Shown in pieces: positions 24,793 to 43,782 of a DNA stretch of 64,000 bases. Position numbers and translations under genes: made by a program. Position 1 is the first letter of the stretch; each line of letters starts with the position of its first letter. The stretch comes from Candidatus Margulisiibacteriota bacterium (lineage in GTDB: Bacteria; Desulfobacterota; Binatia; HRBIN30). The stretch spans positions 334 to 64,333 of the forward strand of contig DATKMS010000036.1 in NCBI GenBank assembly GCA_035541735.1, written 5' to 3'. The notes under the pieces were generated by a model. That model worked only from the letters and a program-made list of their open reading frames with translations. It was not told the origin of the DNA and did no database searches.

Positions 24793-24841
24793 GTGACCAG
24801 TGACCGCTAACCAGTAACCAGTAACCAGGGACCAGGGGACC
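24793..24841. repeat. heptad array, CAGTAAC family copy 1 (single arm)
   Basis: gtgacca gtgaccg ctaacca gtaacca gtaacca gggacca ggggacc, seven consecutive 7-nt units in the divergent gap between the PPIase gene and aguB. Confidence 0.8.
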
Positions 24842-24904
24842 GACGAGGCTTCGCGGCTCACGATCTTGCATCGCCCTGCCTTCCAGCGTATCGGTCGGTC
24901 GCAG

Positions 24905-25789
24905 ATGGGCGCGCGCGACAGCGTTACGATCGGTTTGGTCCAGATGCGCTGCAGCGTTGATCCGGGTGCGAATCTCGCTGCTGCGGTCGAGCGCATCGGA
25001 GAGGCGGCGGGGCAGGGGGCAGAGATTGTCTGTCTGCAGGAACTGTTTCGCTCGCAGTATTTCTGCCAGCGCGAGGATGCGGCGCTCTTCGATCTGGCTG
25101 AGCCGATTCCGGGTCCGAGCACGGATGCGCTCGGCCGTGCCGCCGCAGCGCACGGTGTCGCCGTCGTCGGCTCGATCTTCGAACGCCGCGCTGCCGGCCT
25201 GTACCACAATACCGCGGTGCTGATCGACACCGACGGCGCGTTGCGTGGCGTGTATCGCAAGATGCACATCCCCGACGATCCGCTGTACTACGAGAAGTTC
25301 TACTTCACGCCGGGTGATCTGGGGTTTCGCAGCCACAGGTTGCGCGACGTAGAGGTGGGCGCCCTGGTGTGCTGGGACCAATGGTTTCCAGAGGCGGCAC
25401 GGCTCACCGCGCTCGCCGGGGCGCAGATCGTCTGTTATCCGACGGCGATCGGCTGGCACCCGAGCGAGAAGGCGGAGTGCGGCGCGGCGCAGCACGAGGC
25501 GTGGGAGATCATGCAGCGCAGCCACGCCGTTGCCAACGGTGTGTTCGTTGCGGTGACCAACCGTGTCGGTGTCGAAGGCAACCTGGAATTCTGGGGCGGC
25601 TCGTTCGTCGCCGACCCCTTCGGGCGCCTCCTGGCACGCGCCAGTCACGACCGTGAGGAGATCCTCGTCGCGAAGTGCGACCTGCGCCTGATCGACGAGA
25701 CCCGCCGCAACTGGCCCTTCCTGCGCGATCGGCGGATCGATGCGTATGATGGGTTGTTGCGGCGCTTCCTGGACGAGCAAGAACGGTGA
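24905..25789 (+). CDS. aguB: N-carbamoylputrescine amidase (carbon-nitrogen hydrolase)
   Basis: Start taken at ATG 24905. Nitrilase-superfamily pattern: VCLQELF, YRKMHIPDDPLYYEKFYFTPGD and the catalytic Cys motif CWDQWFPE. It is adjacent to aguA. Confidence 0.8.
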   Translation: MGARDSVTIGLVQMRCSVDPGANLAAAVERIGEAAGQGAEIVCLQELFRSQYFCQREDAALFDLAEPIPGPSTDALGRAAAAHGVAVVGSIFERRAAGLYHNTAVLIDTDGALRGVYRKMHIPDDPLYYEKFYFTPGDLGFRSHRLRDVEVGALVCWDQWFPEAARLTALAGAQIVCYPTAIGWHPSEKAECGAAQHEAWEIMQRSHAVANGVFVAVTNRVGVEGNLEFWGGSFVADPFGRLLARASHDREEILVAKCDLRLIDETRRNWPFLRDRRIDAYDGLLRRFLDEQER

Positions 25790-25876
25790 GTCGGGGAGGC
25801 AAAAGTCAAAACGCAAAAGGCAAAAGTGGTGCCCGACTCTTGCCTTTTGGCCTTTGCGTCCGTTGCCTTTCTTGAG
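25788..25876. repeat. heptad-arm palindromic element, CAAAAG family copy 1
   Basis: ggcaaaa gtcaaaa cgcaaaa ggcaaaa gtgg ... cttgcct tttggcc tttgcgt. gagtcggg (25788-25795) and cccgactc (25832-25839) bracket the left arm. It fills the aguB-aguA gap. Confidence 0.8.
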
Positions 25877-25886
25877 CGGTCGTTGC

Positions 25887-26954
25887 ATGCCCAGCACGAA
25901 ATCCTCTCCAACCCCTGCCGCCCTCGGCTTTCGCATGCCGGCGGAGTGGGAGCCGCACGCGGCAACTTGGTTGGCGTGGCCACACAAGGAGGAGTCGTGG
26001 CCGGGAAATTTCGGTCCCATCCCGGCCGTGTGGGTCGAGATGGTGCGGGCGCTGGCGCCGCATGAGCGCGTCAACATCCTTGTCAACGATGCCACAGCGG
26101 CCGCCAGTGTGCGCGACTTGCTGCAGGTGGCGCAGGTGCCCCGTGACGCGGTGTCACTGCACCTGATTCCGACCAACGACGCGTGGGCGCGCGATCACGG
26201 CCCCACCTTTGTTACCCGGCAGGTCGACGGATGCAGCGAGTTGGCGGCGATCGACTGGATCTACAACGCCTGGGGCGGAAAGTATCCGCCGTGGGACCTT
26301 GACGACGTCGTCCCGCAAAAAATCGCCCCCCTGCTTGGTATCCGCCTCTTCGAACCGGGCATCGTGCTGGAGGGCGGCTCGATTGACGTGAACGGGAGCG
26401 GCACGCTGCTGACCACCGAAGCCTGTCTGCTCAATCCGAACCGCAACCCGCACCTCAGTCGCGCGCAGATCGAGCGCTACCTCAGGGACTACCTCGGTGT
26501 CCGCCACATTCTTTGGCTCGGTGAAGGCATCGCCGGCGACGATACCGACGGACATATCGACGACCTCGCGCGTTTCGTTGATCCCGCCACCGTGGTGACC
26601 GTGCTCGAGAGCAACCCGCGTGACCAGAATTACGAACCCCTGCACGCGAACTACGAGCGGCTGCGCCAAATGACCGATCAGGATGGCCGGGCGCTGCGTG
26701 TGCTGACCTTGCCGATGCCCGAACCGGTCTACTATGACGGCCAGCGCCTGCCGGCGAGCTACGCGAACTTCTACATTGCCAACAGCGTAGTGCTGGTGCC
26801 GGTGTTCGGCGACCCGCACGATGGTGAAGCGCTGCGCCGGCTGCAGCAAGTCTTCCCGCGCCGCCGCATCGTCGGCATTCAAGCCCGCGAGCTGGTATGG
26901 GGCCTGGGCGCGTTCCATTGCGTGACGCAGCAGCAACCGGCAGTGGAGCCGTGA
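25887..26954 (+). CDS. aguA: agmatine deiminase
   Basis: Start taken at ATG 25887 (MPSTKSS...). FRMPAEWEPHAATWLAWPH, DAWARDHGPTF, DGHIDDLARF and C-terminal GLGAFHCVTQQQP (catalytic Cys) are present. Confidence 0.85.
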   Translation: MPSTKSSPTPAALGFRMPAEWEPHAATWLAWPHKEESWPGNFGPIPAVWVEMVRALAPHERVNILVNDATAAASVRDLLQVAQVPRDAVSLHLIPTNDAWARDHGPTFVTRQVDGCSELAAIDWIYNAWGGKYPPWDLDDVVPQKIAPLLGIRLFEPGIVLEGGSIDVNGSGTLLTTEACLLNPNRNPHLSRAQIERYLRDYLGVRHILWLGEGIAGDDTDGHIDDLARFVDPATVVTVLESNPRDQNYEPLHANYERLRQMTDQDGRALRVLTLPMPEPVYYDGQRLPASYANFYIANSVVLVPVFGDPHDGEALRRLQQVFPRRRIVGIQARELVWGLGAFHCVTQQQPAVEP

Positions 26955-27007
26955 GTACGAGAGAGAGTGGAGCGTTTCGGATTCTCTCGCTCGCTCACCC
27001 CGTACTC
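26953..27007. repeat. imperfect palindromic element with GAGAG/CTCTC-type periodic arms
   Basis: gagtacg (26953-26959) pairs with cgtactc (27001-27007). The interior is agagagagtggagcg...ttctctcgctcgctcacc. 7-nt periodic CTC-rich units continue to ~27045. Confidence 0.5.
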
Positions 27008-42566: not shown

Positions 42567-42748
42567 AATAGGGCGGCAGCTAGCGTTGAGCCGAGCACCG
42601 GGCCCCGGGCCGCACTCCAGGCGGAAGGGCGCCACTCCTTCCGGGGCTCAGAAGCGCCGAGCCCACGTAGGGGCGGTATTCACGAGCCAGGGGTGAAGCC
42701 CTGGCTCAGCCATGTTGGAGTGGTGTTGGAGAACACAAACCCAAAAAG

Positions 42749-42779
42749 CGAGGGCCTCGGGTGGATCCCGAGGCCCTCG
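42749..42779. terminator. bidirectional hairpin between convergent genes
   Basis: cgagggcctcggg (42749-42761) pairs with cccgaggccctcg (42767-42779), a 13-bp stem preceded by aaaaag. Confidence 0.6.
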
Positions 42780-42803
42780 TAGAATCAGGGTTCTGGTGTG
42801 CTA

Positions 42804-43556
42804 TCAGGGGCAGCCAGTGCCAACGTCAGGCGAGCAGCACGTGCCCGCGTTGATGTTGCAATGACCGGAATTGCACTCGTCGTCCGTACCCCCTGGACAT
42901 GTTTGCGTCTTACAGAGATGGGGGGTGGTCGAGGTGTCGCAGACGGCGGTGATCAGTTTGCAGTCCGCGTCAACTGCGCACGTGGCGCTCGGATCAACCG
43001 GAACCTTGAAGCCGCAGACGGCGTAAACCTTACCGTCGGTACACTTATTCCCCCCGGCGAGTGGGACGGTATTGCAGGCAGTTGGATCGGACGCCGGCTC
43101 GCGCAACTCAACCAAACCAATCCCCAGGGACTGATTGAAGGTGAGCTGACCGATTGGGCCGAAGAGGCTACCGAGGGAAATTTTGTTCTTGCCGTTCGAG
43201 GGGAAGGCTGCCTTGCCACCGCTGACGTTGAACAGAATGCCTGCAGTGTGCGGGATATCGTTGCCGAGCGCACGCACGCCGAGATCGACCACGTTGTTGT
43301 TGCAGGCCGACCCGCAGTTGATGTCCTTGGTAACCAGTTGGATCGTCGACCCGCCGTCGCCCTTCTTCTTGCTCGGCGCGATCACGATCTTGTCTGCCCC
43401 GTCGGGCTTGGTCAGCGTCGTTGTGGCCAGGTCGTTATGCCCTGTGTCGTTGGTGAACGTACAAGTGTAACCAGCCCCGGCGTGGGCTTGACGCAGCGGC
43501 ATCCCCACCGCCGTCCCAACCACCAGAGCCGCCAAGAAAGTCCTGCGCACCTTCAT
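42804..43556 (-). CDS. secreted cysteine-rich hypothetical protein
   Basis: Start taken at ATG 43556, preceded by GGAGG. Signal peptide MKVRRTFLAALVVGTAVGMPLRQAHA. The C-terminal third carries TCAVDADCKLITAVC and CPGGTDDECNSGHCNINAGTCC, the same C-x-x-DADC-type motif as the dockerin protein. Confidence 0.65.
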   Translation of the reverse strand: MKVRRTFLAALVVGTAVGMPLRQAHAGAGYTCTFTNDTGHNDLATTTLTKPDGADKIVIAPSKKKGDGGSTIQLVTKDINCGSACNNNVVDLGVRALGNDIPHTAGILFNVSGGKAAFPSNGKNKISLGSLFGPIGQLTFNQSLGIGLVELREPASDPTACNTVPLAGGNKCTDGKVYAVCGFKVPVDPSATCAVDADCKLITAVCDTSTTPHLCKTQTCPGGTDDECNSGHCNINAGTCCSPDVGTGCP

Positions 43557-43676
43557 GTGTGTTACCTCCGTCAGCGAGATTTCCTGCGAACGTACCACCG
43601 CGGTCAATTCTGTGTCAACAAAATTCTTGACAAATGATTTTTGTGGCCCGCCGGCGAAGGCGAGAGAGGGAAGATG

Positions 43677-43782
43677 AGTGACCAGTAACCAGTAACCAGT
43701 GATCAGTGGCCAGTACGCCACTGGGAGAAGAGGAGACTCTCCTTCCTCTCACTGGATCACTGGTCACCGGTCACTGATCACT
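43677..43782. repeat. heptad-arm palindromic element, CAGTAAC family copy 3 (both arms present)
   Basis: Left arm agtgaccagtaaccagtaaccagtgatc (43677-43704) against the reverse complement of the right arm (43755-43782) gives 28 positions with 4 mismatches, all transitions. An inner hairpin is gagaagaggaga / tctccttcctctc. Confidence 0.85.

Follow-up and report, generated by a model that had tools for sequence, protein, structure and literature searches.

CAGTRAC heptad arrays as probable members of a genome-wide population of intergenic heptanucleotide repeats in an uncultured soil bacterium

Three loci in a 64,000-nucleotide stretch of contig DATKMS010000036.1 (hereafter the window, meaning the whole stretch analysed) carry tandem copies of the heptamer CAGTRAC, and raise the question of whether such repeats are dedicated regulators of the genes beside them or local examples of something more general. 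A preliminary description had seen in them a small, promoter-linked and locally regulatory family. We find instead that they belong to one of more than 20 heptamer families, which together comprise about 400 arrays across the genome, and consider it probable (roughly 0.7) that all three copies are ordinary members of this population of intergenic heptanucleotide arrays. The arrays are hypervariable, slippage-prone DNA lodged in the first nucleotides after stop codons. They occur in two forms: solo arrays, rich in purines, and hairpins whose 5' arm is purine/G-rich and whose 3' arm is complementary to it. Their gain, loss, replacement and remodelling far outpace change in the genes that flank them.

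The three loci and the heptamer population of the genome

The three CAGTRAC arrays (copies 1–3; Table 1) lie where the preliminary description had placed them, and everything it said of their sequence was confirmed. Tandem Repeats Finder (TRF) reports period 7 at each locus, as imperfect head-to-tail heptads in at least three copies, and the pattern CAGTRACCAGTRAC, with up to one mismatch allowed, occurs 10 times in the window where shuffles predict 0.03; the three loci do form one repeat family. Copy 1 reads GAGTGAC, CAGTGAC, CGCTAAC, CAGTAAC, CAGTAAC, CAGGGAC, CAGGGGA and lies between a surA-like gene (minus strand, start 24734) and a C-N hydrolase gene (plus strand, start about 24905), both named from Pfam matches. 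Copy 3 is flanked by a secreted protein gene on the minus strand, which has no Pfam match, and a MauE-like gene on the plus strand.

Copy 2 bridges the junction of two genes in a gldA/F/G-like operon, one encoding an ABC ATPase and the other its ABC-2 permease (Pfam assignments), with no Shine-Dalgarno sequence left, as had been described. It begins within the final seven ATPase codons (the protein ends in GAVTGEQ), the TGA stop is at 28977-28979, and the permease GTG is at 29047, 7 nt beyond the end of the array. Because CAGTGAC and CAGTAAC repeats hold TGA or TAA in all three frames, the ATPase terminates within the array.

Neither copy 1 nor copy 2 has an inverted partner, in agreement with the single arm attributed to each, and neither folds better than shuffled sequence (z = +0.8); these two are true solos, whereas many other apparent solos probably are not. 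They share a 24-mer, CAGTAACCAGTAACCAGGGACCAG, that occurs exactly twice in the whole genome, at these two loci, and copy 3 has 17 nt of it in common with them, again as first reported. The 24-nt match was rejected as a special tie between copies 1 and 2: exact matches of at least 24 nt join 15 pairs of CAGTRAY-family arrays, so that a match of this length is ordinary within the family. Nor does the family consist of three copies, as had been supposed, since about 46 CAGTRAY-family arrays are present genome-wide.

The genome of the window, here called G000, is a 7.04-Mb, 65% GC metagenome-assembled genome of an uncultured soil bacterium, probably of Candidatus Binatia, the group that supplies its best protein matches, in which a purpose-built codon-bias caller predicts 6,560 genes and 89% coding sequence, with start-codon distances that are approximate. 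In a whole-genome TRF search for arrays of at least 3.5 copies, period 7 dominates (337 arrays, against 61 of period 8 and five of period 10), and arrays of periods 6, 9 and 12 are nearly all within coding sequence. The period-7 arrays fall into more than 20 families, the largest of which are ACTGATC (31), AAACCGG (20) and AACAGAC (18). When merged they number 399, and in this 89% coding genome 237 of them are fully and 78 partly intergenic. The pattern (CAGTRAY)x3 matches 32 times in G000 and is present in four of 120 other genomes sampled from the phylum, two of which have 9 and 14 matches; this patchy distribution indicates a lineage-specific expansion and not a conserved motif.

Placement, handedness and turnover

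The association with promoter gaps that copies 1 and 3 had suggested does not extend to the genome, where gaps between divergent genes are the poorest in arrays (0.10 per kb of gap, against 0.58 for co-directional and 0.48 for convergent gaps). The consistent landmark is the upstream stop codon. Within co-directional gaps the elements begin at a median of 8 nt past the upstream stop, and 102 of 189 elements either start within 10 nt of that stop or overlap it, while the distance to the downstream start has a median of 29 nt, as measured to start codons from a crude gene caller.

Where two arrays are adjacent they are always inverted (56 pairs, with no direct pair), and alignment identifies 79 hairpins, whose arms measure about 33 nt and whose loops measure about 24 nt. 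These have a pronounced handedness: purines predominate in the 5' arm of 73 of the 79, with A exceeding T in 65 versus 9 and G exceeding C in 64 versus 10. A hairpin of this kind has the same arrangement when read from either strand, so the handedness cannot derive from the direction of transcription or replication. Apparent solos that are purine-rich on the sense strand lie 4.5 nt past the stop and pyrimidine-rich ones lie 45 nt past it, which suggests that many of them are probably half-detected hairpins.

The ATPase/permease junction illustrates how readily these sites change. The two genes overlap by a GTGA stop/start in G001 (of the same genus), G023, G013, G006, G034 and G036; in G000 a 77-nt array is inserted directly upstream of the conserved ccGTGAcc, and G019 and G014 have unrelated heptamer hairpins at the junction, of GAAACAG and AAATGGA type respectively. 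By this comparison copy 2 is an insertion that split an ancestral GTGA overlap. A same-species assembly (L245) has flanks that are 99% identical and an identical permease protein, and its copy 2 array exceeds that of G000 by 68 nt and, within unchanged borders, is for the most part rewritten, which alters the ATPase C-terminus. In L250, a relative at 86% identity, this junction has an array of the same family and orientation in remodelled form. We also note that the AAATGGA-type hairpin of G014 (L091, C26) is flanked by a 9-nt direct repeat, GGAGGAGGG, a feature with no counterpart at the G000 hairpins, and that the insertion leaves a 6-codon mini-ORF (open reading frame) with its own GGAGG, ending at the GTGA overlap.

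Other sites behave similarly. L250 shares the AGGCAAA and AAAGCTG hairpins of the window with different numbers of heptads per arm, the arms of its AAAGCTG hairpin being unequal in copy number, and elements that it has and G000 lacks include a hairpin of CAGGGAC units and a long solo array that starts at a stop codon and runs from CAGTRAY to CAAGGAC. The gap separating the MauE-like gene from the CoA-transferase gene has an AAACCGG hairpin in G000, one of CACGAAA type in G001 and no element in G006. Copies 1 and 3 are invariant among near-identical assemblies (three, in the case of copy 1). Copy 1 is absent from G001, where the gap holds an extra plus-strand ORF and a GTTCGTG hairpin, and the right arm of copy 3 is retained in G001 upstream of the MauE-like gene, there after a plus-strand gene and hence in a co-directional gap. 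The extra ORF (about 140 aa; G001:C255:1140-1830), located between surA and the C-N hydrolase gene and probably present also in G006, is one that we take from its appearance to be PaaI-type thioesterase-like; it is missing in G000, G023 and L251, and in G000 copy 1 fills that gap (24735-24905).

We propose that the arrays would have no locus-specific regulatory role and would be tolerated at the sites where they do least harm. They would be co-transcribed with the upstream gene as 3' untranslated or intercistronic RNA, in which hairpins would fold into long, imperfect stem-loops, possibly shielding 3' ends or serving as RNase III substrates, and solo arrays would stay unstructured as spacers that still permit initiation at the next gene. 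Spread among loci probably involves slippage together with copying between arrays, and could be aided by a four-helix-bundle protein of the PF05635 family.

Several observations weigh against this reading. With about 46 CAGTRAY arrays and a recurring CAGTRAY-to-CAGGGAC polarity, a copying mechanism beyond local slippage is called for, and the strict handedness of the arms is not accounted for by a neutral model. The array at the ABC junction, of one family across about 14% divergence, could be useful there. Transcription of the arrays, and any role at the RNA level, are matters that we infer, and the home-made gene caller makes the distances to starts approximate.

Alternative origins and functions

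The alternative that survives best, doubtful as we judge it, is that a mobile or self-propagating cassette gave rise to the arrays and hairpins as gene-less derivatives; in its full form it would carry a PF05635 (S23p, Avd-like) gene between inverted short-repeat arms of this kind, and the protein would be their partner. PF05635 proteins of this S23p/Avd-like type are pentameric four-helix bundles, and the protein considered here has matches to two five-chain PDB entries, 2GSC (Xanthomonas campestris) and 2RLD. Of five PF05635 matches in G000, three (C420, C481 and C312) are enclosed by inverted heptamer or octamer arrays and a fourth (C244) is flanked by an array on one side; taking the best PF05635 locus in each of 28 relatives, about 22 are bracketed, each by its own repeat unit. 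The arms at PF05635 genes have the same handedness as the hairpins, with G exceeding C in the 5' arm in 18 cases versus 3, and the link between PF05635 genes and heptamer arms is real as an association.

Heptamer density points the same way, as a trend only, in 160-kb samples of 13 relatives, a comparison in which kinship and genome size are confounders: period-7 arrays number 0-5, mostly of GC-only units, in five relatives that lack PF05635 and 1-23 in six that are rich in it, some counts being raised by GC-only coding repeats. PF05635-rich G027 and G021 nevertheless have few arrays. Copies 1–3 carry no ORF, the arms differ at every locus, unlike the copy-and-paste of a fixed element, and no target-site duplications are seen, the longest direct repeats on either side of the 79 hairpins being the same as in the shuffled control. 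We know of no biochemical link between the PF05635 protein and heptamer arrays. More speculative, and improbable in our estimation, is the fuller version in which the arrays are the gene-less form of a widespread, undescribed element. When complete, the element would carry its PF05635 gene between arms of fixed handedness (the 5' arm purine/G-rich), and the PF05635 protein would recognise the 7-nt periodic arms, aiding their spread or persistence just after stop codons.

Several PF05635 loci have features of their own. In C420 of G000 (L081) the gene lies at about 1226-1603, in the linker of a dnaE2/imuC-like ORF (region 900-1660); the insert is about 400 nt, is absent from G019 and G023, and leaves the host frame open throughout (ORF 1-2151). 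An octamer/heptamer array at 923-955, within the coding loop of dnaE2, is the pairing partner of its downstream arm (1595-1629), and G019 and G023 have a different heptamer array within that loop. The PF05635 genes at C481:350-900 and C312:2400-2750 lie between AAACCGG-type arms inside what appear, by eye, to be remnants of IS91-family transposases.

A role in translation initiation, with unstructured solo arrays replacing the Shine-Dalgarno sequence as proposed by MacGregor for TAACTGA repeats, would make the array a candidate standby or protein S1 landing site, or a possible site for a heptad-recognising RNA-binding protein. Copy 2 is the natural example: it is unstructured and ends shortly before a GTG that lacks a Shine-Dalgarno sequence, it displaced on insertion a GA-rich stretch that relatives have before the start, and the relative at 86% identity keeps an array of the same family and orientation there. 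Solo CAGTRAY arrays are also more often in sense orientation (14 vs 6), and there is precedent for such arrays elsewhere (PMC4679880). We nonetheless think it unlikely, given that genome-wide the elements appear to lie nearer the upstream stop than the downstream start, that a plain GTGA overlap suffices at this junction in most relatives, that the interior of the array is not conserved even between strains, and that other genes have a normal GGAGG, as upstream of the ATG at 43556.

To similar degree, we do not expect the hairpins to be terminators, possibly bidirectional, that lack U-tracts and have solo arrays as their decayed halves. Their position right after stops, their frequency in convergent gaps and scarcity in divergent ones would suit termination, as would a handedness that gives a pyrimidine/U-rich 3' arm on both strands. 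Against it, TTTT follows the stem in three of 53 hairpins on the sense side and in the same number on the antisense side, giving no U-tract signal, and a scan of 43450-43950 found no terminator-like site at copy 3. Heptamer hairpins also lie inside operon junctions (the ABC ATPase/permease junction of G019 and G014), where termination would be harmful, and the true solo arrays are unable to fold. Canonical intrinsic terminators were rejected for want of U-tracts.

The remaining alternative is a cis-regulatory RNA, in which copy 3 would fold within a minus-strand transcript, whether a small RNA or a 5' leader, upstream of the secreted Cys-rich gene, and the other two copies would tune expression of their neighbours. 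The arms of copy 3 have 29 matches and four mismatches, and the observations from which a folded minus-strand RNA had been proposed stand: all four mismatches are transitions that are compatible with G-U pairing on the minus strand, and the minimum free energy is much better on that strand (-76.3 kcal/mol, against -57.5 on the plus strand, a difference of about 19 kcal/mol). What they imply about the folded species is weak. Three of the four mismatches are at R/Y-variable heptad positions of the family itself, where transitions are expected, and for all four to point the same way p is about 0.125, the mismatches being non-independent.

Among co-directional hairpins genome-wide, G-U-compatible mismatches number 83 on the sense strand versus 59 on the antisense strand, and hairpins leaning to either strand number 29 versus 14, a lean that is compatible with folding within mRNA and is carried by one orientation class; folding of whole gaps gives 112 versus 76. 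As proof of which strand folds, G-U asymmetry was set aside, the genome-wide lean being modest and confined to one orientation class. There is no minus-strand gene upstream of copy 3, and the interval from the hairpin to the Cys-rich gene contains a perfect TTGACA box; a promoter scan of this gap accepted no promoter, and if the box is a promoter the hairpin lies outside the transcript. With, in addition, a same-genus genome that lacks copy 1 and has only the right arm of copy 3, families that swap at the same gaps, and arrays that are rarest in divergent gaps, we regard a cis-regulatory role as highly unlikely.

Other repeats, known systems and significance

Five clear heptamer hairpins of other families are also present in the window (Table 1), together with one weak candidate.

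Table 1. Heptamer arrays and hairpins in the window
Feature	Position	Strand	Remarks
Copy 1, solo CAGTRAC-to-CAGGGAC heptamer array	24791..24841	+	Purine-rich on + strand
Hairpin, AGGCAAA/AGTCAAA family	25795..25861		Onset 6-8 nt past C-N hydrolase stop
Copy 2, solo array, about 11 heptads	28959..29039	+	CAGTGAC/CAGTAAC to CAGGGAC/CAGAAAC/CAGAGAC
Hairpin, AAAGCTG family	31399..31466		Upstream of DUF4340 gene
Copy 3, 5' arm	43676..43708		GAGTGAC CAGTAAC CAGTAAC CAGTGAT CAGTG
Copy 3, loop region	43709..43749		Two small internal stem-loops in predicted folds
Copy 3, 3' arm	43750..43783		Reverse complement of CAGTRAY arm; CACTGGATCACTGGTCACCGGTCACTGATCACTC
Hairpin, AAACCGG family	44323..44414		Between MauE-like and CoA-transferase genes
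Hairpin, CAAAAGG/CTTTTGA family	46671..46790		
Hairpin, AATGGTG/CCATTCA family	63210..63304		

The window has three further features of note. A 181-nt element at 31208-31389, after the gldG-like gene, belongs to another repeat family (CTTGGTGGCGCTGG … CTCCCGCGC hairpins) and is missing from L250. At 33229-34517, inside a large secreted-protein gene, there are three modules of 414-447 nt that are 93-94% identical, and at locus L244 a cohesin-domain gene starts at the position matching these modules. Just upstream of the secreted Cys-rich gene, an AT-rich stretch at 43596-43650 contains TTGACA and the near-palindrome TTGTCAAGAATTTTGTTGACA, and may be a promoter/operator of that gene.

The arrays have every defining feature of, and are, a known class of repeats whose function is still unexplained, the short tandemly repeated repetitive (STRR) or long simple sequence repeat (LSSR) type. 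STRRs were described in heterocystous cyanobacteria (Mazel 1990, as cited in PMC4679880 and PMC4692102), and heptamers are the most over-represented class of long simple sequence repeats according to Mrazek 2007, as cited in the same two papers. As in G000, STRR/LSSR repeats form several intergenic tandem heptamer families per genome; G000 differs in phylum (Binatia-like, 65% GC), in its repeat units and in the prominence of hairpins and handedness.

Heptamers of GGGAATC type in Xanthomonas are intergenic, occur as singles or 'convergent' inverted pairs, vary in array length among strains, and have only 7-8% of their number between divergent ORFs (Rehm 2015, PMC4692102). Together with the GGGGAYT repeats of Nostoc they resemble the arrays of G000 in the 7-nt intergenic unit in a high-GC genome, the coexistence of singles and convergent pairs, the handedness of the inverted pairs, their rarity between divergent ORFs, and an array length that varies among related strains without a change of type. 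In Xanthomonas a single G-rich family, capable of forming G-quadruplexes, predominates, whereas G000 has more than 20 families, most without that capacity, and the CAGTRAY units of G000 contain stop codons, unlike those of Xanthomonas.

TAACTGA arrays in Beggiatoaceae, cyanobacteria and Bacteroidetes lie directly upstream of start codons that lack Shine-Dalgarno sequences (MacGregor 2015, PMC4679880), and copy 2 is reminiscent of them in being sense-oriented and abutting such a start. Both TAACTGA and CAGTRAY contain TAA/TGA and are patchy across phylogeny, and the commonest G000 family (TCACTGA, when rotated) is one base off TAACTGA; the TAACTGA unit itself is not that of copies 1–3, which are built of CAGTGAC, CAGTAAC and CAGTGAT. 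Beggiatoa has essentially one heptamer, with one inverted pair among 170 sets, whereas G000 has many families and hairpins, and the Beggiatoa arrays adjoin the downstream start, whereas G000 elements appear to lie nearer the upstream stop.

The intervening sequences (IVSs) of 23S rRNA genes in Coxiella and Leptospira (PMC4990558) have inverted-repeat arms around a PF05635 gene, as G000 cassettes do with heptamer/octamer arms. Unlike IVSs, the G000 cassettes are between or inside protein genes, and copies 1–3 have no ORF. Identity with 23S rRNA IVSs was dismissed on the location of the copies between protein genes and the state of the 23S genes of four relatives (G008, G027, G039 and G026), which are 3.0 kb with no ORF-sized insert; the 23S gene of G000 is not assembled. 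In G021 the 23S rRNA gene is split over C3:180559-182674 and C18:33-1277 at about model position 2045, with a duplicated piece spanning positions 1689-2035, and the split may reflect a break in the assembly where a repeat or insert lies.

Repetitive extragenic palindromes (REPs) are fixed palindromes mobilised by REP-associated tyrosine transposases (RAYTs). REPs and REPINs resemble the G000 arrays in lying after stop codons and inside operons, with few in divergent gaps. None of the seven Y1_Tnp genes of G000 is abutted by a heptamer array, though one array lies about 330 nt from the gene in C349. Three Y1-transposase genes (C257:9350-10060, C124:1940-2660 and C163:2200-2850) are flanked by a conventional REP-like palindrome, GAATCCCCCGGCTGAGACGG … CAGCCGGCT; this palindrome at RAYT/IS200-like genes is a second repeat system, unrelated to the heptamers. 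A REPIN/RAYT identity was ruled out on the distinct GAATCCCCCGGCTGAGACGG-type palindrome that the Y1 transposase genes carry, and an identity as miniature inverted-repeat transposable elements was dropped, there being no excess of target-site duplications over shuffled pairings.

The repeats of the window are probably not dedicated regulators of the ABC transporter or the Cys-rich protein, and should therefore be annotated as simple-repeat elements. One ABC ATPase/permease junction has been struck independently by different heptamer elements in three related genomes; its GTGA translational coupling was broken and the break tolerated, and the array interior has been rewritten between strains with 99% identical flanks. 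A handedness common to the hairpins and the PF05635 arms goes beyond the direction of transcription or replication as its cause. Models for the origin of heptamers are thus constrained by adjacency to stop codons, handedness, rewriting at the level of strains and the repeated occupation of one junction. If the reading of the arrays as a PF05635-associated element is true, it would provide a mechanistic account of STRR-type repeats, which have been unexplained since 1990.

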